This document shows positions 10,403 through 56,535 of a DNA stretch of 64,000 nucleotides, one piece after another. Numbering within the stretch: position 1 is the first letter of the stretch; the number at the start of each line of letters is the position of its first letter. Below the pieces are notes generated by a model. It was not told the DNA's origin, made no database searches, and saw only the letters and a program-made list of their open reading frames with translations. Source of the DNA: a virus (Duplodnaviria > Caudoviricetes); IMG/VR virus record IMGVR_UViG_3300031993_000067, positions 3,622 through 67,621 of that record. One strand, written 5' to 3'. Position numbers and translations under genes: made by a program.

Positions 10403-10851
10403 CTTTAGTTTCGTGTTTGAAGTTGGTCGTCCTCCGCATTCTTGCATCCCAGGCTTGGAACTGGGCATCGGTGCGTTACGGACTTTTGATTTGGATGGTA
10501 GGGTAATGCCGTGCATCCCCGTGCGCCGATTTCTCCCGGCTTTCACCGCAGCTTCCTCCGCTGCCGCGCTCGCACCTCCGAACTCTCTTTCATCTCCTCA
10601 ACCCGGAAAGTTTCCTCGGCTGATGCGTTTTTTAGTGACCCGCGCTTGGGCTTAGTCCACCAAATACTCGGATGGACGGGAGGGACAATGGAATGTTACT
10701 TATTGGGTGATTTGTAAATGTGAAGAGAACTCGCTATCTTTGCCGCCGAAAACACTCGCTATAATGTTTTTATAGGGCAAGACTCTTTTTGTGGGAGTAT
10801 CCTTTCACTTTTGTCAATCGACTCGGTTAGTTATCCTTGTCCGATTGCAAA

Positions 10852-10903: not shown

Positions 10904-10949
10904 ATTTTTGCCCCTTTTTGTAACTTATTGTACCTCAAGAATTTGTGTT

Positions 10950-11267
10950 ATGGATAGGGACATCAGAAAACGGATCGCTATGGCGATTGACACCCTCTGC
11001 GGAGGGAATAAGTCTGAGTTCTGCCGCCATATAGGGCGAAAAGCGGATGCCGTGAAGGATATTGTCGGGGGTAAGGGTACTGCTCCGGGATTCGACCTTA
11101 TATATGATATTCTTGCTTCCGACTTGGGAATTTCCCCAACCTGGCTCATCCTCGGAGACGGCGATATGGTAACAAAGCCGAAATCCGAGGAGTTGACGCC
11201 AGCGGCGCCTCCACAAACAATCATTATCGGTAACTTGGAAGAACTCGCAAAAATATTGAAGAAATGA
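10950..11267 (+). CDS. CI-like HTH repressor 1, no S24 peptidase domain
   Basis: CGGNKSEFCRHIG...PGFDLIYDIL...ISPTWLILGDGDM, typical Bacteroidales XRE repressor. Confidence 0.8.
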   Translation: MDRDIRKRIAMAIDTLCGGNKSEFCRHIGRKADAVKDIVGGKGTAPGFDLIYDILASDLGISPTWLILGDGDMVTKPKSEELTPAAPPQTIIIGNLEELAKILKK

Positions 11268-41009: not shown

Positions 41010-41144
41010 CCTCTACCGATGGTAGGTGGCATACAGAGCCTTCGGACGCTTGGGCAGTTAACAAGCGTCCATTAGTACATCCACAAGTGTGGAATGTAAT
41101 CGGGACGCGGCGCGACAAAGATTCGTGACCGCGCCCTGTCTTTT
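41010..41144 (+). ncRNA. Putative ~135-nt four-hairpin non-coding RNA convergent with the integrase
   Basis: TACATTTG promoter at 40997-41004; four consecutive stems ending in TTTT; no ORF. Confidence 0.45.
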
Positions 41145-42324
41145 ATTTGAAGAACGGAATGGACGCGAGCATCCGCGCGTTCTCCTCCTTGCTGATCCGG
41201 AGATACTTCTGGAAGTTCTGGATGGTACGGTGGCCGGTGATCTTCATTAACTGATAGTCCGGAACTCCGGCGAGGTGGAGGATGGTGGCACCCGTCCTCC
41301 TCGCGGTGTGGGCGCTCACTTTCTCCCATTTCGCCATCTTCCTGACCGTGACCTTGCCGCCCTTGGTCTGCCTGGTGTCGTAGGTCTCAAGAAACGAGTC
41401 GCCCAGCGTCTTGCATATAGCTTTCATCCTACGGCCAAGTTCCTGCTCGGTCATCCTGGGCGCCGCCCCTCCGTTCCTTTCAAGCACCTGGCGGACGCGA
41501 GGGGAGAGCGGAACGATGACGGAATCGCCGGTCTTCGGCTGCACGAACTGGATCATACCATTAACGATGTTGGAATCCGAGAGTCGAGAGTAGTTCTGGA
41601 AACGCGAGGCGGTATAGACTCCGAGGATGAAGAGGTCGCGGGCCATAGCGTCCCGGCCTTGCAGGTCGGCAGACCAGAGGGCGTCCACCTCCGCTTGCGC
41701 GAGGGCGATAGAGTCCGCCGTTTCCCACCGATACGAGAACTTCCTATACTCCTGGGATTCGTGGTAGCCGAGTTTGTACCCCTCGATCAGCACGGACTTC
41801 ACCTTGGCCGCGAGGGTGGCGCAGTAGTTGGCCGAGAGGTTGATGGCGTTGCAACGCTGCGAGAACCGCACATACCAGGCGCCGTTTACATCCTCCCAGT
41901 CTTCCCTGGTCCCCATAATCTCGGACACGCGCCGGTAGGCGAGACTCCGGTCTTTCGCAGACCTCGTGTCACGAGCTGCCCATTCCCTGAAATAGTCCCA
42001 AAACTTTGGGCGGGACATACCCGCACCCTCTTTCTTCTTCTGCTCCTCGCCGGTCAGCGCATAGGCTATGGCATCCTCTATCTGATCCGGAGTGGAAAAC
42101 TGTGTCAATTTCTCGTTAAGGCGCACCTCGATCGCCCTCAGCCGGACATTTATCTCCTCGTCCTTGCATCGCTGCTTCTTGAAATCGCAGGGGCGCACCT
42201 TGATGCCCACCATCTTCCTGTATTGCTTGCCGCCGTGGTTTATGACAAGGCGCAGCGGCGTGGGTTTCTGCCGGGCGGGGCTGATGTCCTCCTGGCGGTC
42301 GAACGGATAAAACGCGAAAGTCAT
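41143..42324 (-). CDS. int: Phage integrase (tyrosine recombinase with arm-binding N-domain)
   Basis: N-terminal LRLVINHGGKQYRK; catalytic TASRF, HTARRT, TGH...QKY. Confidence 0.92.
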   Translation of the reverse strand: MTFAFYPFDRQEDISPARQKPTPLRLVINHGGKQYRKMVGIKVRPCDFKKQRCKDEEINVRLRAIEVRLNEKLTQFSTPDQIEDAIAYALTGEEQKKKEGAGMSRPKFWDYFREWAARDTRSAKDRSLAYRRVSEIMGTREDWEDVNGAWYVRFSQRCNAINLSANYCATLAAKVKSVLIEGYKLGYHESQEYRKFSYRWETADSIALAQAEVDALWSADLQGRDAMARDLFILGVYTASRFQNYSRLSDSNIVNGMIQFVQPKTGDSVIVPLSPRVRQVLERNGGAAPRMTEQELGRRMKAICKTLGDSFLETYDTRQTKGGKVTVRKMAKWEKVSAHTARRTGATILHLAGVPDYQLMKITGHRTIQNFQKYLRISKEENARMLASIPFFK

Positions 42325-42568: not shown

Positions 42569-42600
42569 GAGAGCGAGGAGGGTATCACCCCTCCCCGTCC

Positions 42601-42996
42601 TTATCTTTTCTTGAACTCGCAGACCACCGCCTCGCCGTTCTTACCATTGATGCGCCCCTCGACCTTGAACGAGGTGCGGCTGGTAATCGTGCCTGGGCTG
42701 GATGAACTGAACGAGTACACGAGCGTCTGGCCGAAATGCTCGGCACGGCGGCACTCTATCTCCACCACCCCGGCGAAGGTGATCTTGTCGCCGTCGATGG
42801 CATAGTAGCCCATATTACCGGCCTGGCCGTTGAAGTAGAGTTTGTGGGTGTTCTCGCCCAGGAACTCGGTGTAGAGGTCGCCGTCAGGCGTGGAAGCGGA
42901 GTAAAGACCAAGTTCTATTCCCTTGGGGTTCTCGATCTTGTGGCAGGCGGCACAAGCAACAAGCGCCGCCGCGAGGATAAGCATTAACTTCTTCAT
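42601..42996 (-). CDS. Lipoprotein (superinfection-exclusion candidate)
   Basis: MKKLMLILAAALVACAAC signal peptide II / lipobox. Confidence 0.7.
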   Translation of the reverse strand: MKKLMLILAAALVACAACHKIENPKGIELGLYSASTPDGDLYTEFLGENTHKLYFNGQAGNMGYYAIDGDKITFAGVVEIECRRAEHFGQTLVYSFSSSSPGTITSRTSFKVEGRINGKNGEAVVCEFKKR

Positions 42997-43020
42997 GGCA
43001 TTGAGATTAAGCGTTCAAAT

Positions 43021-43857
43021 TTAAGAATTTAATCCGAAAAATGTTCTCGCCTGGTCGTTGAGGTCAACGGATGTGGGGACGCAGTAACGCTGCGTCATCT
43101 GGACAGAGCTATGCCCGGCGAGGCGGCTGATGGAGAGGAGGTCCGTGCCGGTCTTGGCGAGGTTCGTGCAGAAGCTCACCCTGGCCGTGTGGCTCGTGAT
43201 GAACTCCCACTTCTCCCCCCGCTCTTCCTTTCCGTTCTTGAAGACCACCACGGCGGTGCGGATACCCGCCCGCCTTGCCAGGCGCCGGATAGCATCGTTG
43301 TAGGTGGCGAGGTAGAGTTCGCGCCCATTCTCCTTCAACCACTCGATCCGCTCCGCGATGCCGGGACGCAGGGGGATGGTGGTAGTGGTCTTGGTCTTCT
43401 GGCTCACATAGGTGAGCATACCCCCATCCGTCTTTTCCGGGCAGACGGTGTTGGTGTCGGAGATACGCATGCCGGTCCAGGCGGACACGAGGAACTGGTT
43501 CAGGACTATCTCCTCGATCTCGTTCTTGGGGGTCACGCGCTCCAGCGCCTCAAGTTCGTCCGTGGTAAGGTAGGTTTTAAGCGGTTTTTCGCCCCTGGCG
43601 GTGATGATGGACTCCCAATCCTTCGGGAGTTCTATATCGTCCGAGAATCGCTTTAAAATGGCCTTAAAAGCGGCGCATACGGTCTTGGCCGTGTTGGGGG
43701 CCACCGTCCGGGCTAAATGGTCACGAAACTCGTAGAAATTGCTCTTCGTGAGGCCGTCCCAGGTGAAGATGCCAACGGCGCGGAGGTGCTTGATGATAGA
43801 AGCGGCCTGGCCGGGGTTGGCGGCGGCGTGTTCAATAGACTCAAATAACTCTTTCAT
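43021..43857 (-). CDS. Second tyrosine recombinase (no arm-binding domain)
   Basis: WTGMRISD, HTARVSFCT, LAGHSSVQMTQRY catalytic motifs. Confidence 0.9.
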   Translation of the reverse strand: MKELFESIEHAAANPGQAASIIKHLRAVGIFTWDGLTKSNFYEFRDHLARTVAPNTAKTVCAAFKAILKRFSDDIELPKDWESIITARGEKPLKTYLTTDELEALERVTPKNEIEEIVLNQFLVSAWTGMRISDTNTVCPEKTDGGMLTYVSQKTKTTTTIPLRPGIAERIEWLKENGRELYLATYNDAIRRLARRAGIRTAVVVFKNGKEERGEKWEFITSHTARVSFCTNLAKTGTDLLSISRLAGHSSVQMTQRYCVPTSVDLNDQARTFFGLNS

Positions 43858-43957
43858 AAGGCAAAGATTCAGATGTTTGGAAGACCGGGGAGGTATCACC
43901 CCCTCCCGGCCTTTTACCCCATAAAAACACAGTTAACACGACGCGCCAAGCGGCTGA

Positions 43958-44167
43958 TTATCTTGACGCGACAGGTTCTACATAGCCCGACATATTGATG
44001 CGGCCAATATCATATTTCTCGATGAAACTATGATTTCTCCGGTATTCGTAGGCGGAAGAAAAAGAGTCGAACTTTTCCGCCTGGTCGAGTTCTTTCGTCG
44101 TGGTAGGCCAGCAACCCACCCTTGACGCGAGGTAACTCCCGAAGCGCATAAGCACATAACTTGCCAT
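43958..44167 (-). CDS. Small hypothetical protein (array)
   Basis: 69-aa ORF. Confidence 0.6.
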   Translation of the reverse strand: MASYVLMRFGSYLASRVGCWPTTTKELDQAEKFDSFSSAYEYRRNHSFIEKYDIGRINMSGYVEPVASR

Positions 44168-44178
44168 AGCGCCAGGGA

Positions 44179-44445
44179 TTAGGACGCGACATTATACGAG
44201 ACCCACTGGCAGAATTTGGGGAGCGTGAAAGCCCTATACGATGCGTTTGTCATCGCGCCAAAGTCCTTGCCGCTTGCTACGAAGTCGGGGAGGTTCCCGA
44301 TATACACAACGAATACATGCGTCACCACGCCCATCCCGTCAGGGAAATCGACATGGACGGCCAGGTAGGTGTCGCCCTCCTCGTCCTTGAGGACATCGGC
44401 GACGTAATCGCCGAACTCCTGATTCTGAGATACAAATGTGAACAT
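44179..44445 (-). CDS. Small hypothetical protein (array)
   Basis: 88 aa, preceded by hairpin plus leader. Confidence 0.7.
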   Translation of the reverse strand: MFTFVSQNQEFGDYVADVLKDEEGDTYLAVHVDFPDGMGVVTHVFVVYIGNLPDFVASGKDFGAMTNASYRAFTLPKFCQWVSYNVAS

Positions 44446-44508
44446 AGCGCAAAAAATTAGAGGTTATTGGCGAGCCTGCGCGGTATCACCCGCGCAAGCC
44501 CGAAGAGG

Positions 44509-44763
44509 TTACAGGCCCAGTTCTTTGACCAAAGCGTCGAAGTCCAGGTTGTCCAGCGAGACGCCCCCCTCGTTGTAGTTCTCGTAGGAGAGCATGCCTG
44601 GACGGACCGGATCGTCGTCAGTGTTGACGACCACCTCCCGGTGTTCCTTCTCGACATGCACCCAGACCTTGGGGTTGCGCCCGGTTGCGGTTGCGACGGC
44701 AACGATGACGGTGCCGCGAATTTCGGAATCGGTCTTGCCGACCGTGTTTTCAATGATGATCAT
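44509..44763 (-). CDS. Small acidic protein (array)
   Basis: MIIIENTVG..., acidic C-terminus. Confidence 0.7.
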   Translation of the reverse strand: MIIIENTVGKTDSEIRGTVIVAVATATGRNPKVWVHVEKEHREVVVNTDDDPVRPGMLSYENYNEGGVSLDNLDFDALVKELGL

Positions 44764-44781
44764 AAGCAAAAGTATTTAGGA

Positions 44782-45090
44782 TTAAACGGTTGCTGCGTAA
44801 ACGCTCCTGGGGTACATCTTGGCTCTTGCGGCCTGGAACTCCGGGGAGTTGTTGATGGCTTCACTGGACATGCGCCAGTGGTTCTCCGGGAAGGCGATCT
44901 TTGCGGCCACGCCAGGCATGTAGTCTGAGCCATCGGGGATGGCCACCCCCTCCGCCTTCCCTATGTTGATAAGATACTGCGAATAGATGCGGAAGACACG
45001 CTGCCAGGTCTTGCGGTCGTGCTTGGAGCGGTCCCAGTTATCGCAGATTCTCCGGTACTGCTGGAAGATTGTAAGTAATGATTTAGCCAT
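44782..45090 (-). CDS. Hypothetical protein (array)
   Basis: MAKSLLTIFQQY..., 102 aa. Confidence 0.6.
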   Translation of the reverse strand: MAKSLLTIFQQYRRICDNWDRSKHDRKTWQRVFRIYSQYLINIGKAEGVAIPDGSDYMPGVAAKIAFPENHWRMSSEAINNSPEFQAARAKMYPRSVYAATV

Positions 45091-45103
45091 AACACTAAGG
45101 TCT

Positions 45104-45409
45104 TTAGATTTCCACCTGTCGTGTCTCTTTCGAGTCCGCGATCCGGCGGCGGATTTCCTTGTAGCAGGTAGGACCGACAGGGAAGAACCCTTGACCTCTC
45201 CCTCCGTCGTCAAGTACATCCTTTACATCCCCCTGTTCGTCAGTCCAGAAGCCGCACTCCAATAGTTGGACCAGCTTCGTCGTTTTGGGGTTCAGCCTCC
45301 TGCCGCAGATTTCACAATGCTCGAAGTTGTTCCCTGCGTAGGTCCGATCATAGTTGAGATCATGGCGGTCGTCCTGCCAGTAGGGTGTTACTTTAATGGT
45401 CTTCTTCAT
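45104..45409 (-). CDS. Zn-finger-like small protein (array)
   Basis: HCEICGRRL...FPVGPTC. Confidence 0.7.
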   Translation of the reverse strand: MKKTIKVTPYWQDDRHDLNYDRTYAGNNFEHCEICGRRLNPKTTKLVQLLECGFWTDEQGDVKDVLDDGGRGQGFFPVGPTCYKEIRRRIADSKETRQVEI

Positions 45410-45476
45410 ATCCATGTGATTTTATGGTTATCTGGAGAGACGGGAGGGGTATCACCCCCTCCCCCCCCTCTTTTTG

Positions 45477-46478
45477 TTACGCATTGGCCCAGTAGGACCA
45501 GGTGTGAATCTTGGAAACGCCGTAGCGTTTCAGGTAGGCATGCAGGCGCTTCTCGAAGCCGTCCCGGACGAAGCGGAGAGCAGCGGCCACGGCCTTGCGC
45601 TCCTCGTCTGTGAGCTGGCGCCAGCCCTCGCGCACAGCGTCCCAATAGTCTACGCTGTACTGCTTGGTCCGTATCCAGGCCGTGTTAGAGTCGTACTTGT
45701 CGGCGGCGACAAGGACCGGATCGTCGCCTTCCTCCAGGAACTTCAATTTGACATCGAAGTCGGAGAGGTTCGCGTTGAGGAAGTAGGCGCGAAGTTTCTC
45801 CTCGTCGGCGAGGAGGGAATTATACAGGTCGTAGTCGGGGCCTTCGTCCTCGAAACAGAACTTGTTCTCGATCGACGGCTTGCTGATCAGATAGAAGCCC
45901 TCCGGTAGTTTGACGCAGGCAGCGGTTTTGCGCTCCTTGTATTCCCGCCCTCTCGTGCATGTGTCGAGATATTCGCGGCGGGCGACGAGGTATGGGGCCT
46001 CAGCCTCCTCTTTCTTCGCCGTGGCGGTTTTAGCGCCTCCAAGAAGGGCGCGGACGGCCTCCTCCTGGCGCTTGGAGAAAATCCAGCCAGGACCGCAAGA
46101 CAGGCGAGGATTGAAGCGCCCGCCCAGCGCCTTGAGACTGTCAGAAATGGACCTCGTATCACCCGTAACGGCGATAGCTTTCTCGGAATAGTCAACGACC
46201 TCGAAAGAGGACGCCGGAGCCTCCTCCTGGGCCTCCTCCTTCATGGCGGCCTTGACATCGTTGAAGTCGGCCTCGGACAGCCACTCCATGCAGGAGAGAC
46301 CGTCGGGGAAGCCCTCGGTGTCCTGGATCATAAACTCAGGGTCACGCTCGTCCTTGTGCGCGTCCTTGCACTTAGCCAGGAAATCGGAATAGCTTGCGCA
46401 GTCGGAGAGGTCGATCCACGCACCGGCGATGCTGCCGGAGTTGTACTTCCCATAAGTACTAACATAAACTTGTGCCAT
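45477..46478 (-). CDS. ardA: ArdA antirestriction domain fused to two further domains
   Basis: VYVSTYGKYNSGSIAGAWIDL...DPEFMIQDTEGFP is the ArdA N-domain; then VDYSEKAIAV...GGRFNPRL..GWIF; then KPSI...FEKRL..YLKRYG. Confidence 0.8.
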   Translation of the reverse strand: MAQVYVSTYGKYNSGSIAGAWIDLSDCASYSDFLAKCKDAHKDERDPEFMIQDTEGFPDGLSCMEWLSEADFNDVKAAMKEEAQEEAPASSFEVVDYSEKAIAVTGDTRSISDSLKALGGRFNPRLSCGPGWIFSKRQEEAVRALLGGAKTATAKKEEAEAPYLVARREYLDTCTRGREYKERKTAACVKLPEGFYLISKPSIENKFCFEDEGPDYDLYNSLLADEEKLRAYFLNANLSDFDVKLKFLEEGDDPVLVAADKYDSNTAWIRTKQYSVDYWDAVREGWRQLTDEERKAVAAALRFVRDGFEKRLHAYLKRYGVSKIHTWSYWANA

Positions 46479-46536
46479 AGCACGGAAGCCCTGTTTATAT
46501 CCCGCCGGACTTGCGGTGCAAAATTTAGAAGGCGAT

Positions 46537-46570
46537 ACAAATATAAGCAGAATATTTTAAACTGCAAAAT
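46537..46570 (-). promoter_or_regulatory. Early promoter copy 2 (drives the ardA sub-array)
   Basis: TTTTGCAG...TATATTTG on the minus strand; near-identical to 51419-51452. Confidence 0.75.
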
Positions 46571-46592
46571 AAATTTGAAGTATTTCGCGGTT

Positions 46593-46913
46593 CTATTCCT
46601 TGGTGGTGCGCTCCAGGCTCTCCACTGCTTTTCTTACAGCATCCTCTAAGGTTGTGCCATAGAAATCATGCTTGGTCCAGTGCGGCCAATCTCCGATCTT
46701 TACACCCCACTTAGGTTCTCTAAACTCCTCGTGGTACACAACCTTATGAGTGCCGTTTTTAAACACTTTCTCCTTGATGGTGTCCCCGTCGTTGATCGTT
46801 TCTCCATCGCGGTATATGTGGAAGCCAACAATATGCGTAGGGAAACACCTCACAGTTAAATTGTGCTTCTGGATCAGGGAGAAAATCTCCTCAAAGGTCA
46901 TTGAGTTTGTCAT
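46593..46913 (-). CDS. Hypothetical protein (array)
   Basis: 106 aa; TACCTTTG elements upstream. Confidence 0.65.
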   Translation of the reverse strand: MTNSMTFEEIFSLIQKHNLTVRCFPTHIVGFHIYRDGETINDGDTIKEKVFKNGTHKVVYHEEFREPKWGVKIGDWPHWTKHDFYGTTLEDAVRKAVESLERTTKE

Positions 46914-47021
46914 GGCTTTTTGTTTTTGTTAAGGCAAAGGTAGGGCAAAGGTGTGCAATGTATTTGCACAATAAAAACGAATTGGAGGACCAGGCCCCGG
47001 TCAGGGGGCCAGGCCCTTGCA

Positions 47022-47630
47022 TTATGCCGCGACAGCAGCGAGCAGGCGCCCGCGCTGCGTGGTGACTTTGTGATATACGCATGTCCCGTCGCTAAACAGC
47101 CCGCCCCGCTCGAAGATGTTGTCACCCACAAGATCGGCGCAAACACCTTCCAGATACGAGATGACTCCCTCCAGGGCTTCGTTTATCTTCTTGTGGATGT
47201 TGGCCTCCTGCATTTTCTTGATCCCGGCGTTCCAGTCGGTCCCGCGCTCGCAATAATCCCAGTCCTCGAAGATGTCACGAGCGATGGCCTCCAGGTCGTC
47301 GTAGTCGTTCATGCTGAAACGGTCATTCCAGCCAACGGCCTCGAAATCCCAGTCCAGCGTGGCGTCCTGGTAGTAGCCTGGCCGCACGATGATCTTTCCG
47401 TACAGGTTGAAACAGTAATTCCGAGAGAGTTGGACATCGCCCCACTTAAATTCAAGGATGACCGTCCCCTCGTCCCTGTGGTATCTTGCGCCATGCTCCG
47501 GTTCGTTCATGATCCGGAATCGCTCCCCGTCGGGCCGATTCTTGGCAGCAGCCTGGATGTCGCGGATGGTTTTGTTTTCAACGACATAATAGTATTGTGC
47601 GTTGATCTTGGAGAAATTTGTAGTACCCAT
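47022..47630 (-). CDS. Hypothetical protein (array)
   Basis: 202 aa, MGTTNF...PGYYQDATLDW; hairpin plus leader. Confidence 0.75.
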   Translation of the reverse strand: MGTTNFSKINAQYYYVVENKTIRDIQAAAKNRPDGERFRIMNEPEHGARYHRDEGTVILEFKWGDVQLSRNYCFNLYGKIIVRPGYYQDATLDWDFEAVGWNDRFSMNDYDDLEAIARDIFEDWDYCERGTDWNAGIKKMQEANIHKKINEALEGVISYLEGVCADLVGDNIFERGGLFSDGTCVYHKVTTQRGRLLAAVAA

Positions 47631-47689
47631 AATGCCAAAATTTAGAAGTTATTTGCAAAGGGGATGGCGGCCAGGCCGTCCCCTCCGTG

Positions 47690-48046
47690 TTATGCTTTCT
47701 TTGGATTTTGCATTGAAAGGGCCCTTTGTTCGCAAAAACTGGTCCCACTGCACCAGTTATAGCGATCTTTCAGGGTCTCGATGTCATCCACCAGTTCCTT
47801 GTATTGTTTAGGAGTCAAGTCGTGAAGGTGGAACGGGTCCCACTTCTTATAAAAGCGCATCGCGGCGCGGTGGGTTTTCAGGACGTCATCCTGGCACTGG
47901 CCGCACCTGTTGAAATCCGTCTTCGGACGATTAAAGACAGCCGCAGACGTGGAGAAATACGGAGAGGCATTGCTACCAATAGTCTTGTAGCTAACTTCAA
48001 AAATTTCCGTCCTTGATAGCTGGAACGTAAGATTTAATTCGTTCAT
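47690..48046 (-). CDS. Hypothetical protein (array)
   Basis: 118 aa, CGQCQD; best-matching leader. Confidence 0.75.
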   Translation of the reverse strand: MNELNLTFQLSRTEIFEVSYKTIGSNASPYFSTSAAVFNRPKTDFNRCGQCQDDVLKTHRAAMRFYKKWDPFHLHDLTPKQYKELVDDIETLKDRYNWCSGTSFCEQRALSMQNPKKA

Positions 48047-48086
48047 ATCACAAAATTTAGAGGTTAATTTGAGAGGGTGGGGCCGA

Positions 48087-48449
48087 TCAAAGCCCCGCCC
48101 CCTTGATCCTGGCGGCGAAGGTGTGCGCCCCTATCTTTTCGAGAAGATAGACGGCGACCCGCGCGTCCAGGTTTCCAAGCAGCGCCGCACGGACGCAGCA
48201 GTCAAGTTGCAACAGCGGCATGCCGCAACCACCCCGGCGCCGGTAGTCCTGGAGCGCTTCACGAAGCACCCCCGCCAGGTAGTTAGGCTCCGCCTCCATC
48301 GCGGCGTATGTGTCGGACAGCTCAGGGCTGGCCGGGACCAGGGCCTCGCCCTCGCTCTCCTCGGTCCGTTTACGATCCAGGCGGCGAGCCAGGCCCCACA
48401 GTGCGCCAATGATTGCACCGACGCCCCAGCAAAGAAGAATTATTTTCAT
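48087..48449 (-). CDS. N-terminally anchored membrane protein (array)
   Basis: MKIILLCWGVGAIIGALWG. Confidence 0.6.
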   Translation of the reverse strand: MKIILLCWGVGAIIGALWGLARRLDRKRTEESEGEALVPASPELSDTYAAMEAEPNYLAGVLREALQDYRRRGGCGMPLLQLDCCVRAALLGNLDARVAVYLLEKIGAHTFAARIKGAGL

Positions 48450-48502
48450 AAGCCAGGAAATTAGATGGAAGGAGGGGAGCCGGTCAGGGCGCCCCTCCTT
48501 TG

Positions 48503-48934
48503 TTATTGCATTACAGTCATTAAGGCCATAAGGCCCATAGTTGCATGGACCTGGGCCTCGTTTTCCATAGGCGGGAGGTCCTGGAGGCGCTTTTTATTCT
48601 CCTCGGTCAGCCCGGCGTGAAGTTTCTGGAAGGCGCCAAACATCGCCTCGCAGCGCTCATTTTCCGCCGCAGCCTCCCCGTCGATCAGTTGACGCTTCAT
48701 TTCCGCCTGCATGTCCTTGGGGAACTTCCTAATCATGCCCTTGAGGGCTGTTTCATAATCGAAGCGTTCCCAGGTCCTATTGATATACGATACCTTCGTG
48801 TCCCGGACATCGTAGTCCAGCGACACGACCGTGTGACAGAACCCGTTCCGGGTCCAGGTGGTGTAACATTTGAAACGGTACTCCTTCCCGTTCACTTTGC
48901 AGGAAAACTCCTTGCAGTTTCTTTTCTGTGTCAT
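48503..48934 (-). CDS. Hypothetical protein (array)
   Basis: 143 aa, TRNGFCH...YINRTWERFDYE. Confidence 0.75.
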   Translation of the reverse strand: MTQKRNCKEFSCKVNGKEYRFKCYTTWTRNGFCHTVVSLDYDVRDTKVSYINRTWERFDYETALKGMIRKFPKDMQAEMKRQLIDGEAAAENERCEAMFGAFQKLHAGLTEENKKRLQDLPPMENEAQVHATMGLMALMTVMQ

Positions 48935-49003
48935 AATTGCAATTTTTAGAGGGTTTTGGAAGGGGAGCGGGGAATCACCCCCGCCCCTCTTTATTGCTGC
49001 CGT

Positions 49004-49249
49004 TTAGTCCTCGAAATAGCCGTCCACAAGCGACAACACAAAGTCCTCGCCGTGCGGCGTTTTCCCTTGCACCTCGAAGACATAAAAGCCCTTTTCGCGG
49101 TTAAAGAAATCGTCCTTGCGGGTGACCTCCCAGCCGGAGGCGATAAGATTGTCGCGCTCCTCGATCATGGCGGCCTTGGCGTGGTCCCAGTCCTTAAAAT
49201 ACCGATCACACCGGCGCCCGCCGACGGTCTTACAGTAGATTGTAAACAT
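49004..49249 (-). CDS. Small hypothetical protein (array)
   Basis: 81 aa with hairpin plus leader. Confidence 0.75.
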   Translation of the reverse strand: MFTIYCKTVGGRRCDRYFKDWDHAKAAMIEERDNLIASGWEVTRKDDFFNREKGFYVFEVQGKTPHGEDFVLSLVDGYFED

Positions 49250-49310
49250 AATGCAAAAGTTAGGGGTTTGGAGAAGAGGAGGGGAGTCACCCCCTCCCCC
49301 TCTTTTCTAT

Positions 49311-49514
49311 TTACGGCGTCACGATCACCAGGCGCCAGTCGCGCGGGGAGCTGTTACATTCATAACCGGCGCCCCGGAACGCTGCGACCAGGCGGCAGGC
49401 GTCGGCGGACGATCCAGCCCGGACTAAATATTTACCGTCTTCGTCCTCCCGGACATGCGGTTTCTGGAAACTGGCGCGAGGCGTCGCCAGGGCAATAGCT
49501 TTGATTTTGTCCAT
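49311..49514 (-). CDS. Small hypothetical protein (array)
   Basis: 67 aa with hairpin plus leader. Confidence 0.7.
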   Translation of the reverse strand: MDKIKAIALATPRASFQKPHVREDEDGKYLVRAGSSADACRLVAAFRGAGYECNSSPRDWRLVIVTP

Positions 49515-49574
49515 AATGCAGTATTTAAGGGGTTATTTGAGAGGCTGGGGGCTGTCACGCCCCCGGTCCCTTGA

Positions 49575-49799
49575 TCATGAAAACAGCACGTCCATTTCCG
49601 TAATATCCACGTCTGTGTCGTTTTCCTCACAGTAAGCCTGTACGCACTCGCAAATATCATTTGCGAGACCATAGTCCGCCTGCTCGATAGGGATTCTATA
49701 ACGATCACACAGGGAGATAGCGGCGGCGGCTCTAATATCGTAGTCGTCGATTCGCTCCCGGCAAAAGGCTTGCACGGCCTTGATTGTATTCTCGCTCAT
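49575..49799 (-). CDS. Small acidic protein (array)
   Basis: 74 aa, D/E-rich, with hairpin plus leader. Confidence 0.75.
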   Translation of the reverse strand: MSENTIKAVQAFCRERIDDYDIRAAAAISLCDRYRIPIEQADYGLANDICECVQAYCEENDTDVDITEMDVLFS

Positions 49800-49857
49800 A
49801 ACGCAAAATTTAAGGGGTTACTTGCAGCCTGCCAGGGGATCAACCCCGGCGGGCCGT

Positions 49858-50022
49858 TTAATATCTGGAGAAAAGGACGTCTTCGAGGACTTCCAGGCAC
49901 TGAGCCTTCCCCCACGCTGGCGCCCAGGAGCCCGGCGCGTAACGGTGCAAGCACTCAGAGACAAACCAGGCCGGGCAAAGCGCCAACAGCCATAACACAA
50001 TACGGATAGCTTTGTAATTCAT
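49858..50022 (-). CDS. Small hydrophobic protein (array, 54 aa; not in the ORF track)
   Basis: MNYKAIRIVLWLLALCPAWFVSECLHRYAPGSWAPAWGKAQCLEVLEDVLFSRY, flanked by two elements. Confidence 0.65.
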   Translation of the reverse strand: MNYKAIRIVLWLLALCPAWFVSECLHRYAPGSWAPAWGKAQCLEVLEDVLFSRY

Positions 50023-50076
50023 AACACAAGATTTTAGAGGTTTGGAAAGAGAGGGGACGGCCAGGCCCCCTCCCTT

Positions 50077-50286
50077 TTATTTGTCTTCCGTATGATAGCA
50101 AAGCGTATCCCCGGCGGTATGCTCATACACCCGGAAATTCGTCTTGAAGCCATCATTCTTTGCGGCCTCCTGGAGCCTGGCGGCAGCGCTAAGCGCTTTT
50201 TCCTTGTCGAAGTACAGGGAATGAATCCCGGACCAGCCCCGGGAAGATTGCCGGATTTCGTAAATCTTAGTGCGAATAACGATCAT
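50077..50286 (-). CDS. Small hypothetical protein (array)
   Basis: MIVIRTKIYE..., leader directly upstream. Confidence 0.7.
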   Translation of the reverse strand: MIVIRTKIYEIRQSSRGWSGIHSLYFDKEKALSAAARLQEAAKNDGFKTNFRVYEHTAGDTLCYHTEDK

Positions 50287-50342
50287 AATGCAAAAATTTA
50301 GGGGGTTTGAAAGGGGAGGGGCGGTCAAGCCCCGGCCCTTTG

Positions 50343-50483
50343 TTAGCCTTCGTAATATTCACGAATAATTACAGCGCCATTCTCTTTGATAAGGTCAGGG
50401 AGGAGGACCGCCAGCTCCCCGGCGTCAACTGCCGTATCTAAAATGATACAGCCAGTTTCTTTGTTTAAAACTTCGAATAACAT
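50343..50483 (-). CDS. Small hypothetical protein (array, 46 aa)
   Basis: MLFEVLNKETGC...; ATG start follows the element at 50484-50544. Confidence 0.6.
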   Translation of the reverse strand: MLFEVLNKETGCIILDTAVDAGELAVLLPDLIKENGAVIIREYYEG

Positions 50484-50544
50484 TGCACAGGAGTTTAAAA
50501 GGTTTGCAGCCTGGCCCCCGGTCAAAGGAGCCAGGCCGGAAATG

Positions 50545-50811
50545 TTAACTAACAAGATACGACCCGCCAGGAGTCTCTACGCGAAGCCCGCCAGGGACCC
50601 GCCAGCCGCAAGAGAAACCAAAGCTATTATACGAAATGATTCTGAAATCTTCGCCGCCTTCGTTTTCCATCATGTTTTTGCAGTCTCTTTCCGCCAGCGC
50701 CTTTGCGCACGAAAAACGACCGTAACAGTCGGAAAGGGTTGAATCTGTCGAAAGATCATACATTTTGATCCAGCGCTTGCCGCGCTTGATGGTGCTGTTG
50801 ATTTGTTCCAT
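50545..50811 (-). CDS. Small hypothetical protein (array)
   Basis: 88 aa, YGRFSCAK...IISYNSFGFSCGW. Confidence 0.75.
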   Translation of the reverse strand: MEQINSTIKRGKRWIKMYDLSTDSTLSDCYGRFSCAKALAERDCKNMMENEGGEDFRIISYNSFGFSCGWRVPGGLRVETPGGSYLVS

Positions 50812-50875
50812 AATGCAATTTTTTAGAGGGTTAAAGAGAACCCCGGCCAGCGGTCAAGCGGGCCGGGATTGATAG

Positions 50876-51202
50876 CTAAGAAATGAAGTACAAAACGCCG
50901 TCAATTTCCAGGCTGATAGCTTCCTGTTGCATGATCTTGCAAAGGTCCTTACAATAAGCGACGACCGCGCGACGGTTACGAAGTTTTTGAGCCAGGCTGC
51001 AAAAGCCCACACAAATAGTTACATTTTCCAGGACAAGCCCGGCGGACTGAGAGACCCAAGCGCCGCGAACGTCGTAACTTGTCGCACCGCCGAAAAGCCC
51101 GGAAAGGAAAGAAAGCGTATTTTCAACCTGCTTTGAGTTGTCGCAAGACTCAGAAACGGCGACCGTCGAAGGTACGTAAATTTTGAAATTGTGGCGTAAC
51201 AT
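50876..51202 (-). CDS. First array gene, ferredoxin/PII-like fold candidate
   Basis: MLRHNFKIYVPST...FGGATSY...GAW...MQQEAISLEIDG. Confidence 0.7.
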   Translation of the reverse strand: MLRHNFKIYVPSTVAVSESCDNSKQVENTLSFLSGLFGGATSYDVRGAWVSQSAGLVLENVTICVGFCSLAQKLRNRRAVVAYCKDLCKIMQQEAISLEIDGVLYFIS

Positions 51203-51418
51203 AATGCAGTTATTTAGAGATTTGAAGCCCGCCACGCCGCGAAGCGTGACAGGCTGTATTTGTCGGTTTTCCGATCCACCGAAAAGCTAAGAAGAAGAAA
51301 GTTTATTTACTTTCCGTTTCCCTTTGTAAGCCGGGCGTATCTACCTGCAAACCGTAAGCCGGGAAACTGTCAAAGGCTGGCCGCGAGTGTGGTTAATTCG
51401 TTTCGTTCCTTTGCCTAC

Positions 51419-51452
51419 ACAAATATAACTCAAATATTTTAAACTACAAAAT
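51419..51452 (-). promoter_or_regulatory. Early promoter copy 1 (head of the array)
   Basis: TTTTGTAG-TTTAAAATATT-TGAG-TTATATTTG on the minus strand. Confidence 0.75.
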
Positions 51453-52840: not shown

Positions 52841-53173
52841 ATGACAAGGAAAGAAGAAAGGATATTGTCGGAGTTATACCCCGGCGTGTCAAGTTTCACG
52901 GACGAGCAGGTCGCGTTCGCGCACCGAGCCATTGAAATCTGCAACAGGGACGCGAAGCGTTCGAGGATTCCCCGTACCGACATCGGCATTGGGGAAACTT
53001 TTTTCCGCAAGGGCAAGCGGTACAGGTGTATTCCTCGCCGCCGTGTTGGTTTGCCTTGCGAGGCGTGTTCCGGGTGCGCGTTCAATCAGTCGGATGCGAA
53101 GTGTGCCGGATTGCGATGCTCGAAGTTCGACCGCAGTGACGGCAACAATGTCTGGTTCGAGGAGGTTGTATGA
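52841..53173 (+). CDS. Cys-containing hypothetical protein
   Basis: CEACSGCAF...C...C...DG..VWF; TATCTTTG 4 nt upstream of ATG. Confidence 0.7.
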   Translation: MTRKEERILSELYPGVSSFTDEQVAFAHRAIEICNRDAKRSRIPRTDIGIGETFFRKGKRYRCIPRRRVGLPCEACSGCAFNQSDAKCAGLRCSKFDRSDGNNVWFEEVV

Positions 53174-54489
53174 TTTCCATTCTGCGTGAGGAGTTTTCGG
53201 GGCTGTTGACGGCGAGGGCGGAGCCTTTGTCGTCGGTGTTGTCTGTACGCGCGGTGAAAGACCGTGTGGACTCCTTGACGCTATTTTGCCGGGAGTTGTT
53301 GCGGTCGTCGTCGTTGTGTCTGGTGGATGGTGATCTGCATGTCTTCGATGGTCGGAGTTATGTGTCGTGTTCGCGGGCTGATGTGGTGGCTGTGCTGGGG
53401 AATGTGCTTGTGGATGGAGGGGTGTCGCCGACGGATGTCCGGATGATGTCTGACATGCCGATGTCGGTGATTGGTGAGCGGTCGTTCCGTTCCGGCCGTC
53501 TTCTCTGTTTCCAGAACGGCGTGTACGACCTGGACGACGGCTCGTTCACGGAGGGTTTCAGTGCGGATCGTGTGTGTACGGAGCGGATGGAGTACCGATA
53601 CGACCCTTCTGCCGGATGTGCGGCATGGGAGGCGTTTCTTTGCGAGGTGTTGCCTGATGCTTCGGTGCGGAGCGTCCTCCAGGAGTTCTTCGGCATGGTC
53701 TTTCTGGACCGAGAGCGGTTGAGCGTGGAGAAGTTCGCGTTGATGGTTGGTTCCGGTGCGAATGGGAAGAGCGTAATCGGCAATGTGATGCGCAGGGTGC
53801 TTGGTGCATCCGGTGTCACCTCTCTGGACACGGCTCAGTTGCGGGACGAGAAGATGTTGCCATTCATCGGGAAGCGGTTGAATTTCGTCCCGGACATGGC
53901 GCGGAACAAGGACTTCGACTCGGCGATCAAGGCGCTTGCCTCCGGCCAGGAGGTGACTGCGAGGCGTAATTACCAGGACCCGGAGCGGGTGAAGTGTCCG
54001 CCGTTGTGTTTCGCCCTGAACGAGTTGCCGGTCTTCCGCGACCTCACGCCCGCTTTCTTCCGCCGTCTGCTGCTCTTCCGGTTCGACGTACAGATCCCGT
54101 CGGAGCGTCAAGACAGGACGCTGGCCGACCGGTTGTGCGCGACGGACCTGCCGGGCATCTTCAACTGGGTGATTACCGGGCGTGACCGGCTCATCCTGAA
54201 CGGCGGCGAGTTCACTCCTTGTCCGAAGATGGACGGCGAGCTGGAGTCGATGCGCCGGGAGGTGTCCGCCTGTTCGTACCCGGCGCGGGCGTACCTGGAG
54301 AGCCGTGGCTACTCGGTACGTCCGGAGTTCGACGGCCAGACGCCTGTGCTGGTCTCTCAGAACGAGATCGCGCTGGGCTTGCGCGACACGGTGTCGCGTT
54401 ACATGATCACGGCGGAACTCAAGCGCCTTGGCGTCCAGACTTTCCGGAGCAAGGAGCTGTTCTACAAGGTATATCCCAAAACGAAATAG
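53170..54489 (+). CDS. P4/D5-like SF3 helicase (primase-associated C-terminal part)
   Basis: LCFQNGVYDL (D5_N), WEAFLCEVLPD, GSGANGKS Walker A, FALNELP, FFRRL. Confidence 0.85.
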   Translation: MISILREEFSGLLTARAEPLSSVLSVRAVKDRVDSLTLFCRELLRSSSLCLVDGDLHVFDGRSYVSCSRADVVAVLGNVLVDGGVSPTDVRMMSDMPMSVIGERSFRSGRLLCFQNGVYDLDDGSFTEGFSADRVCTERMEYRYDPSAGCAAWEAFLCEVLPDASVRSVLQEFFGMVFLDRERLSVEKFALMVGSGANGKSVIGNVMRRVLGASGVTSLDTAQLRDEKMLPFIGKRLNFVPDMARNKDFDSAIKALASGQEVTARRNYQDPERVKCPPLCFALNELPVFRDLTPAFFRRLLLFRFDVQIPSERQDRTLADRLCATDLPGIFNWVITGRDRLILNGGEFTPCPKMDGELESMRREVSACSYPARAYLESRGYSVRPEFDGQTPVLVSQNEIALGLRDTVSRYMITAELKRLGVQTFRSKELFYKVYPKTK

Positions 54490-54932: not shown

Positions 54933-55134
54933 TTTCCAGTGCGGATGGCGCCGCATCGCCTGCCGTGTGATCCTGTGGTTCAACGGTCTGCTTCGCGGTC
55001 TTGGGAGGTGGCTTTTCCACCTCTCATTCGCCGGGGTGCAGACCAGGCTGTATAAGCGGTGGTACATCGAGCGCCAGGAGCGTATGACTGTTGACGAAAT
55101 CAGAATGACGTATGGCGGTGGAACGGAGTCTTGA
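54916..55134 (+). CDS. Small hypothetical protein
   Basis: 72 aa overlapping both neighbours. Confidence 0.55.
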   Translation: MAGLSNFQCGWRRIACRVILWFNGLLRGLGRWLFHLSFAGVQTRLYKRWYIERQERMTVDEIRMTYGGGTES

Positions 55135-55627
55135 TCTCGGTCTGGCGGAAATAAGAAGTAGTATGGCCATACCTACACAACCCATAGATTTCAGCCCGTC
55201 GAAGGTCTTTCTCCAGAAACTTGACGGGTCGGAGCCGCCGATCGTCGGCGAGTTCCCATCGGCTCCACCTCTGCCGAAAAAGGTGGGTGGGGAACGGTGG
55301 TGGACGGGATGCGACACCGGCCCGGGATTCGGCGAGACCGTATTGACCGCAGAGGTGTCCGTTCCGCCGGAGGCCGTCGCGGAGTTGAAGCGTATGGCGC
55401 AGCAAGCTCTCCTCGACACTTTGGTTAATGTGATTCGGAAAGCGCGATACATAGACCGCTATTTTCACGTTTTTCATTTGACGGAGGAGATATATCGGCG
55501 CGATTCCGCCCTCTGCCACCGGCTCCACCGGATGAACCTCACCAGATACCTCCGCTCCAAATGCCTCTATCCGGCCCGTGGCATCCGCGTCACCCTCAAG
55601 AGCGGCGCGGTGGTCTGGCGGAAATAA
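55112..55627 (+). CDS. Hypothetical protein
   Basis: 171 aa, last gene of the rightward unit. Confidence 0.7.
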   Translation: MAVERSLDLGLAEIRSSMAIPTQPIDFSPSKVFLQKLDGSEPPIVGEFPSAPPLPKKVGGERWWTGCDTGPGFGETVLTAEVSVPPEAVAELKRMAQQALLDTLVNVIRKARYIDRYFHVFHLTEEIYRRDSALCHRLHRMNLTRYLRSKCLYPARGIRVTLKSGAVVWRK

Positions 55628-55694
55628 AAAAAGCCGCCCACACATCTCTGCGTGGACGGCACCTCTAAATTTTGCATTACGGATTTAAAAATCC
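55626..55694 (-). ncRNA. Putative trans-acting small RNA antisense to the shared start-codon leader of the array genes
   Basis: GGAUUUUUAAAUCC hairpin + GUAAUGCAAAAUUUAGAGGU seed + GCCGUCCACGC/GUGUGGGCGGC terminator + U7; own promoter. Confidence 0.75.
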
Positions 55695-55698
55695 AGTG

Positions 55699-55729
55699 CA
55701 AAGATAGTGAATCCGGAGGGGAAATCAAA
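55699..55729 (-). promoter_or_regulatory. Consensus Bacteroidetes primary-sigma promoter for the sRNA
   Basis: -33 TTTG (55726-55729), 19-nt spacer, -7 TATCTTTG (55699-55706). Confidence 0.8.
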
Positions 55730-55746
55730 GCCTCTCCGGATTTTTC

Positions 55747-56535
55747 TTATTCGACTATCCCCATCCGGCGCAGCCTGCCCCGGATCGCGTTCTCCAGGAA
55801 GGTGCGGTACTGCTCGCGCAGGAGTTCCGGCGGATTGTGCATGAGGACTACGGAGGCGAAGGCGTCACGCGCCTCTCTCGCGTCAGCCAGAGTGTATTTC
55901 CCGGTGATGAGCGATCCGTTGCGCCTGGTGTAGTGATAGACGACCTCGGTGCTGATGAAGGTCCGCTTCCCGGCGAACGCGAACTCCATGTTGAAGATCA
56001 TGTCCTCGAAGACTCGCACTCTGGGGAAGGATGTGATGGCTTTGCGCCGGTAGAGGCATCCGGTCACATGGCCGACATCGCAGGTAGGCGTGAATAGGAC
56101 GGGGGAGAGCCGGTGCCGGAGGCCGGGCGGTTCTATCTTCCAGATGCTCTTCTCTCCAGTTGCCTCCCATTCGTTCATCTCAAGCCCCACGATGCGGTCC
56201 GCTTCCGGGTTGCGCTCCATCTCGGCGAGGAGGGTGCTGAGGGCTTCCGGGAAGAGCCAGTCGTCGGAGTCGAGGAAGGTGACGAAGACGCCGGATGCCA
56301 CGGCGAGACCGAGGTTGCGGGCGTGGAAGAGGCCGTTGTTCTTCGTGGATGAGACGATGGTAAACCGGGGGTCGCCATCCGTCTGGGCGATGATCTCGCG
56401 CAGACTTCCGTCGATGGAGCCGTCGTTGACAACGATGCACTCCCAGTCCTCCTCGGTCTGCTCTTTCACGGAGTCCAGGCAGCGCTCGATGTATTTCTCG
56501 GTGTTGAAGACCGGTACGATGATGGATGTCTTCAT
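55747..56535 (-). CDS. Glycosyltransferase family 2
   Basis: SIIVPVFNTEKYIERCLDSV...IVVNDGS...ARNLGL...FLDSDD...FEDMIF. Confidence 0.9.
   Translation of the reverse strand: MKTSIIVPVFNTEKYIERCLDSVKEQTEEDWECIVVNDGSIDGSLREIIAQTDGDPRFTIVSSTKNNGLFHARNLGLAVASGVFVTFLDSDDWLFPEALSTLLAEMERNPEADRIVGLEMNEWEATGEKSIWKIEPPGLRHRLSPVLFTPTCDVGHVTGCLYRRKAITSFPRVRVFEDMIFNMEFAFAGKRTFISTEVVYHYTRRNGSLITGKYTLADAREARDAFASVVLMHNPPELLREQYRTFLENAIRGRLRRMGIVE

Follow-up and report, generated by a model that had tools for sequence, protein, structure and literature searches.

The 64,000-nucleotide stretch of phage DNA analysed in the present study (hereafter, the window) contains at positions 55626-55729, on the minus strand, what is probably the gene of a trans-acting antisense small RNA (sRNA). 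Judging from the sequence, the probability is put at about 0.7 that this stretch encodes an RNA of ~70 nt that would block translation initiation on an early gene array whose cistrons are tagged with a shared leader. In effect, such an sRNA would be a global repressor of early-gene translation that is made of RNA.

The window comes from an IMG/VR virus record of 67.6 kb that is rated complete. A codon-bias gene map and family searches identify the phage as temperate and siphovirus-like; its host belongs to the gut or rumen Bacteroidales. The gene map and family searches placed a structural block at 20.5-41 kb on the plus strand, followed on the minus strand by two tyrosine recombinases (41143-42324 and 43021-43899) and an array of small genes (~44-51.2 kb), which includes a gene for an ArdA fusion (45477-46478, minus strand, recognised by family searches). 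A D5-type primase (53170-54489, plus strand) belongs to a rightward operon, and a minus-strand block with a family-2 glycosyltransferase and a PAPS-reductase-like protein begins at 55747. The sRNA unit lies inside the 119-bp gap between the plus-strand ORF 55112-55627 and the stop codon of the glycosyltransferase gene at 55747. This corrects the genomic context assumed earlier: the unit sits at a convergent-gene junction, between the plus-strand ORF ending at 55627 and the minus-strand glycosyltransferase gene ending at 55747.

The search of the phage collection found no near relative of the window phage at the DNA level, and neither the sRNA core nor the leader had an exact-pattern match in viral_contigs. 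The 171-aa plus-strand ORF neighbouring the sRNA unit has no relative in viral_contigs, and the search with the glycosyltransferase led to two loci, both non-syntenic and both without the sRNA unit. The relatives compared below are syntenic loci from metagenomes and metagenome-assembled genomes (MAGs) reached via primase homologues. One close relative is integrated beside the gene of ribosomal protein L19 in a MAG, and its primase is attributed to a Bacteroidales bacterium by one source. The MAGs into which the contigs of relatives L016, L017 and L018 were binned are labelled Fibrobacter or Clostridia. Mis-binning of the phage contigs is likely, because the promoters, the prophage context of L013 and the other relatives point to Bacteroidales.

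The original prediction of a promoter, a 5′ hairpin, a 20-nt stretch and a terminator proved accurate in the position of every element. The complete promoter TTTG-N19-TATCTTTG spans 55699-55729 on the minus strand, with the -33 element TTTG at 55726-55729 and the -7 box TATCTTTG, of the Bacteroidetes sigma-A type, at 55699-55706 (for the consensus, see PMC7366714). The full pattern TTTG-N17-21-TAnnTTTG has four matches in the window against 0.42 expected; one is the sRNA promoter, and of the other three, one precedes a helix-turn-helix (HTH) gene, one ardA and one the head of the array. The predicted sRNA, ~70 nt in length, occupies 55626-55698 (minus strand), with a putative 5′ end and with a 3′ end in the U-run. 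It comprises a 5′ hairpin GGAUUUUUAAAUCC (55681-55694), an unpaired 20-nt seed GUAAUGCAAAAUUUAGAGGU (55661-55680), which is antisense to the array leaders and the start codon, and a Rho-independent terminator (55626-55660), all on the minus strand. A CGU of the seed stands opposite the AUG start codon and pairs with it through one U-G. The terminator consists of a stem-loop at 55633-55660, with 12 pairs, 8 of them G-C, and of U7 at 55626-55632; its U-run overlaps the stop codon of the plus-strand ORF 55112-55627. The orientation, which had been deduced from two G-U pairs of this stem, was borne out by the folding energies: -28.2 kcal/mol (z -4.9) for the minus-strand RNA versus -18.7 kcal/mol for the plus strand. 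No Rfam family reaches its gathering score in the window, and none fits the sRNA at E values up to 10 in the region 55560-55780.

Another hairpin, TCCGGAGAGG..CCCCTCCGGA, is located at 55716-55744 between the stop codon of the glycosyltransferase gene and the sRNA promoter. It is followed by a T-run on the plus strand only and probably ends the rightward operon; relatives carry a terminator hairpin at the matching place. The two hairpins of the junction are crossed, the one with the plus-strand T-run (55716-55744) lying near the minus-strand gene and the one with the minus-strand T-run (55633-55660) near the plus-strand ORF. Therefore, the 3′ ends of both converging transcripts and the sRNA would overlap by ~100 nt.

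Among relatives whose primase is 48-71% identical (L004, L006-L016, L018), 14 of 14 carry the sRNA unit, in each case on the minus strand and where the primase operon has its 3′ end. The elements of the unit keep their order: the -7 box comes first, then the 5′ hairpin, an A/U-rich stretch free of pairing, the GC-rich terminator and finally the U-run. All relatives displayed keep the TAnnTTTG -7 box except L012, which has CACCTTTG, and most have TTG or TTTG ~19 nt upstream of it. The neighbouring genes on the far side vary and include a glycosyltransferase, a methyltransferase, a DUF1064-portal block and small ORFs. This indicates that the unit travels with the early region.

All ten units that were folded form the 5′ hairpin, the unpaired seed and the terminator. 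The hairpin sequences are unrelated between phages, yet they always pair through compensatory changes, with several pair types per stem position, as counted by a script that ranked positions from the base of the stem; MAFFT alignments of the sRNAs were structurally inconsistent, and RNAalifold recovered the terminator only. In the terminators of relatives U-G pairs are frequent, which would be mismatches on the opposite strand. A covariance model built from seven units recovers the other seven, and nothing else convincing was found with it in 600 kb. Neither a regular expression nor the covariance model detected the unit at five distant primase loci (39-47% identity; L017, L019, L020, L021, L023) or in the 2.8-kb fragment L022 (43%). 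At L020, where the primase is 45% identical, no anti-leader or inverted copy is present within 10 kb of the primase gene. Three genes of L020 (6387, 7743 and 8182, minus strand) share a different leader, TTTTTAAAATTTTTAAGTT-ATG. Either the RNA gene of this phage lies elsewhere, or a tag can exist without an RNA gene.

In the window, the seed is complementary to the region from -20 to +3 of 11 array gene starts, with duplex energies of -19.3 to -26.5 kcal/mol; among the 79 further starts that were scored, 7 of them from the array, the strongest duplex has -12.0 kcal/mol (Mann-Whitney p = 2e-6). Listed from the head of the array, and all on the minus strand, the target leaders are those of ATG 51202 (51200-51224, -20.1 kcal/mol), start 50811 (50809-50832, -24.9), ATG 50286 (50284-50308, -20.3), start 50022 (50020-50044, -20.0), start 49799 (49797-49820, -21.3), start 49514 (49512-49532, -19.3), start 49249 (49247-49268, -20.7; 2 mismatches to the 20-mer), start 48934 (48932-48956, -19.4), start 48046 (48044-48068, -22.7; 3 mismatches to the 20-mer), start 47630 (47628-47652, -26.5, the best target, with one bulge) and start 44445 (44443-44468, -19.8). 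The ATGs 51202 and 50286 are proposed as corrected starts of ORFs 50876-51235 and 50077-50328. The starts GTG 51235 and TTG 50328, which were assigned mechanically, are probably wrong; both in-frame ATGs carry the shared leader.

One more leader-like site (46513-46532, minus strand, -21.7 kcal/mol) is located at the 5′ end of the ardA 5′ UTR, ~35 nt before ATG 46478. Its geometry differs from that of the other targets, as the copy is not adjacent to the ATG, and ardA has a full promoter of its own. A scan of the whole window on both strands agreed with the expectation that the array starts should come out on top of a phage-wide target prediction, as did the comparison of scored starts: the top 16 sites hold the 11 array starts and the ardA 5′ UTR site. 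The remaining ones are the antisense of the unit itself, an HTH gene start (10950) and a further two, which are taken for chance matches.

The start region of this HTH-like small gene (ATG 10950; 10921-10954, plus strand), which stood outside the scored gene list, pairs with the seed at -21.3 kcal/mol, like the array leaders. The gene lies behind a full-consensus promoter (10711-10742). If this site is real, the reach of the sRNA would extend to a regulator close to the immunity region.

The original prediction described the seed as the antisense of the shared leader. This holds for the consensus (20 of 20 positions) and for the duplex energies, but less well for single genes: the literal 20-mer has only two array matches at ≤3 mismatches and nine at ≤6, most leaders showing 4-6 mismatches. 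The pairing reported for the genes at 47630, 48046 and 49249 is in agreement with the energies calculated here (-26.5, -22.7 and -20.7 kcal/mol).

Two full matches to the promoter consensus, both on the minus strand, are the only full promoters serving the array, one at its head (51420-51450) and an internal one before ardA (46538-46568). The hairpins of the array have no U-tract on the sense strand. It follows that the leaders should be internal to polycistronic mRNA, and from its sequence the array looks polycistronic with two promoters. The layout of the junctions is the same in the window and in relatives: a stop codon, an A-rich stretch, a GC hairpin, CCAAA, the leader and ATG. The leaders are A/U-rich and have no Shine-Dalgarno core.

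The cassette-like layout is seen in the window at 42600-51260 (minus strand) and in the arrays of L006-L015, where the hairpin loops often read GTGAY, CTGACC or CTGGCC. In the window, as in eight relatives (including L006, L008, L010 and L012-L015), a short tyrosine recombinase closes the array at its distal end. As regards the function of the array, ArdA is the single gene that suggests an anti-defence role. The junction hairpins at 48967-48984 and 49278-49297 score as intrinsic terminators on the plus (antisense) strand, with the T-run on that strand and an A-run on the sense strand, and could stop antisense transcription across the array.

The leaders might also be read as DNA. According to such an explanation, the shared motif would be a promoter -7 box or the operator of one protein, and the copy at 55661-55680 a promoter on the plus strand opposed to that on the minus strand; pairing between RNAs would play no part. 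Indeed, the motif CTAAATTTTGCAT resembles TAnnTTTG plus a start region, the plus-strand copy ends in ATG in five of the ten phages tabulated, and the window has a terminator-like hairpin with a T-run downstream on the plus strand. Nevertheless, this explanation is very improbable. TTTG is often absent from the array leaders and is their least conserved part, the best-conserved bases adjoin the ATG, and no leader has a -33 element. Moreover, in the relatives the copy is not followed by any conserved plus-strand ORF or terminator, and the U-G pairs of the terminator turn into mismatches on the plus strand. Two related candidates were rejected. Leaderless array mRNAs with the motif as the -7 box do not agree with the unconserved TTTG and the missing -33 element, and an N4-like hairpin promoter does not agree with a siphovirus-like temperate phage that has no giant virion RNA polymerase gene.

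Covariation of seed and leaders in related phages had been named beforehand as decisive for an RNA-pairing function, and it was observed: the relatives keep the antisense unit, and the seed tracks the leaders of the array. The leader pentamer at -5 to -1 is GCATT in the window, GAGTT in L006, L007, L012, L015 and L018, GCTTT in L008, L009, L010 and, weakly, L014, and GCCTT in L013. The commonest pentamer is the one predicted from the phage's own seed in 11 of the 11 phages with an array in reach, the agreement being weak in L014, where only one of seven array genes carries it. In the eight relatives counted, other pentamer types are absent save for one gene. The test did not include L004, L011 and L016; in the latter the array lies off the contig. 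In most phages the seed has CAU, or CGU with a wobble, opposite the AUG.

The topology of the primase tree shows the pentamer types interspersed, GAGTT, GCTTT and GCCTT each occurring in several clades, and places the window (GCATT) as sister to L006/L007 (GAGTT) with a support of 100/98. Given this scatter, and given that the array and the sRNA gene are separated by the primase gene, seed and leaders have switched together repeatedly. These joint changes may have arisen by co-evolution or by joint exchange. The natural covariation across phages is the equivalent of a compensatory-mutation test. Duplex energies fail to separate the window seed from the seeds of L008, L011 and L013, so specificity among the GCNTT types is weak. 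Seeds of the GAGTT type pair much less well with leaders of the GCNTT type.

The junctions of the array also bear on the origin of the sRNA gene. On the opposite strand they read CAT, anti-leader, GC hairpin and T-run, and they score as plus-strand terminators and as weak matches to the sRNA model. For this reason the sRNA gene resembles a cassette junction that was inverted and acquired a promoter and a 5′ hairpin. If this origin is true, the inversion of one cassette junction would be an easy route to a new regulatory RNA. Gene conversion between the repeats could in principle keep the inverted copy in step without any function. The resemblance of the junctions to an anti-leader plus terminator would suit the idea that the unit acts mainly in cis at the convergent junction, either as an OOP-like antisense RNA to the 3′ end of the rightward replication operon or through crossed terminators, its anti-leader being an inherited inverted junction maintained by gene conversion. 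The constant position of the unit at the 3′ end of the plus-strand operon, whatever adjoins its other side, and the overlap of the U-run with the stop codon agree with this idea as well. On the other hand, seed and leaders have co-switched several times although the primase gene between them shows no grouping by type, and this is unlikely to be due to conversion of an inverted repeat of 20 bp at a distance of 4-12 kb. Conservation of the promoter and the 5′ hairpin, and of the lack of pairing in precisely the anti-leader part, also speaks against a cis role, and an expressed RNA with such a seed would pair with the leaders anyway. A mainly cis-acting unit is therefore considered improbable, if somewhat less so than a DNA site.

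The proposed mechanism of the trans-acting sRNA is as follows. Transcription from the host-type promoter would yield an RNA whose ~20-nt seed is left unpaired between a 5′ hairpin, serving as protection, and an intrinsic terminator. Through this seed the RNA would base-pair with the shared leader (~-20 to +3, AUG included) of 11 cistrons of the leftward early array, as well as with the site in the ardA 5′ UTR. In Bacteroidota, initiation does not involve Shine-Dalgarno pairing and needs an unstructured A-rich stretch right before the AUG (PMC7366714). As these bacteria depend on that stretch, a duplex over -20 to +3 should block initiation and would keep the ribosome off all the tagged cistrons at once, with polarity or decay possibly coming next. 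Accumulation of the sRNA during infection might shut the array off, or the sRNA might keep the array silent in the lysogen. There are precedents in the host phylum: pairing of Bacteroides thetaiotaomicron FopS-10 next to a start codon abolishes in vitro translation, with compensatory mutants as a control (PMC11697453), and GibS pairs across start codons (PMC7366714). The silencing direction is suggested by the FopS precedent in Bacteroides and, otherwise, by the position of the duplex.

The pairing itself may be real and its effect something other than repression. The sRNA could open or stabilise the message near the GC-rich hairpins, guide its processing into single cistrons, or serve mainly as an RNA immunity factor against related phages that enter the cell with the same tag. 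The data that speak for initiation block speak for these variants too, as none of them gives the sign of the effect. A strong hairpin precedes every leader, and the layout could mark processing sites; the sRNA gene is flanked by terminators and has a promoter of its own that looks constitutive, as is the case for genes that prophages express. The poor pairing of GAGTT seeds with GCNTT leaders would allow immunity groups, but the one-base differences among the GCNTT types discriminate little. Considering that the duplex covers the initiation window from -20 to +3 and that FopS-10 pairing by the start codon represses (PMC11697453), an effect other than repression is regarded as unlikely, although it is the strongest of the alternatives. 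A block of initiation by the sRNA is still the preferred reading.

The assertion that no such system has been described was too strong, since P1/P7 c4, the P4 CI RNA and FopS share the principle. The predicted sRNA would work like c4, the P4 CI RNA and FopS/GibS, but it is none of them. The c4 RNA is cut from the leader of the operon under its control and has two target sites in one mRNA, and from P1 to P7 its seed changes in parallel with its targets. Both c4, which belongs to the immI region and is represented by the Rfam family C4, and the sRNA proposed here are short phage-encoded RNAs acting on genes of their own phage by pairing; c4 represses icd and ant of P1/P7 by pairing with their mRNA (PMC8198154). 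Unlike c4, the present unit is a stand-alone gene with its own promoter and terminator, located 4-12 kb from its targets, beyond the primase operon, with 11 gene starts as targets and a host of a different phylum. The Rfam C4 model has no match at the gathering score in the window and is absent from 55560-55780 at E values up to 10.

The CI RNA of the satellite phage P4 pairs with the repeated sites seqA and seqC in its own early transcript and keeps the early functions off (PMC4825925). It is likewise an antisense RNA directed against repeated complementary sites in the phage's own early genes. Unlike the present sRNA, it acts by premature termination of transcription, is processed from the target transcript and has two sites, which are not at start codons. 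Rfam searches found no sequence or model similarity between the two RNAs.

FopS and GibS of B. thetaiotaomicron share with the sRNA the host phylum, the promoter type and a seed placed next to or across the start codons of several mRNAs. Blocking of initiation by a seed of the FopS type is backed by in vitro evidence for FopS-10 (PMC11697453). In contrast to the present sRNA, FopS and GibS are chromosomal and target mRNAs of SusC-type transporters (PMC11697453, PMC7366714); the targets here form a phage array with one tag on all cistrons. In FopS, the seed is held in the single-stranded 5′ end and the terminator follows directly, whereas in the sRNA described here a hairpin precedes the seed (all ten units folded). 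The FopS family model gave no match at the gathering score or at E values up to 10. What the unit has in common with trans-acting sRNAs in general is a host-type promoter, a Rho-independent terminator on the same strand and a covarying unpaired seed. In phage T4, many early mRNAs cease to be translated when a single phage factor, RegA, occupies their initiation regions. RegA is a protein; the factor proposed here would be an RNA that recognises its targets by base pairing.

Cluster K mycobacteriophages have a conserved short sequence directly before many start codons (SAS/ESAS; the SAS has 13 bp), and about half of the copies are preceded by an inverted repeat; the consensus positions differ between phages, and the function was left open, antisense RNA not being mentioned (PMC3203893). 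Only the layout is like that of the array leaders. SAS is of the ribosome-binding type, probably has another sequence and occurs in phages of an actinobacterial host, and the likeness is an analogy only.

Little has been charted of post-transcriptional control in Bacteroidota and the phages that infect them, and here about a dozen phage cistrons appear to form the regulon of one sRNA by virtue of a shared start-site tag. Tentatively, and with slightly less than even confidence, it can be suggested that temperate Bacteroidales phages run a whole early accessory array by an RNA tag and anti-tag: each cistron would carry the same start-site leader, and one phage RNA would read them all. Tag and anti-tag would drift and switch jointly, giving RNA specificity groups that could also provide superinfection immunity, and the same logic may explain start-associated sequences elsewhere, for example in Cluster K phages with a single inverted site. 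If confirmed, the sRNA would represent a simple and testable mechanism by which gut and rumen phages switch off early or anti-defence genes, would offer an explanation for conserved start-associated sequences, the function of which has been open since 2011, and would provide a possible RNA basis of immunity groups. The seed and its tag would also make up a compact programmable handle for the control of genes in Bacteroides.
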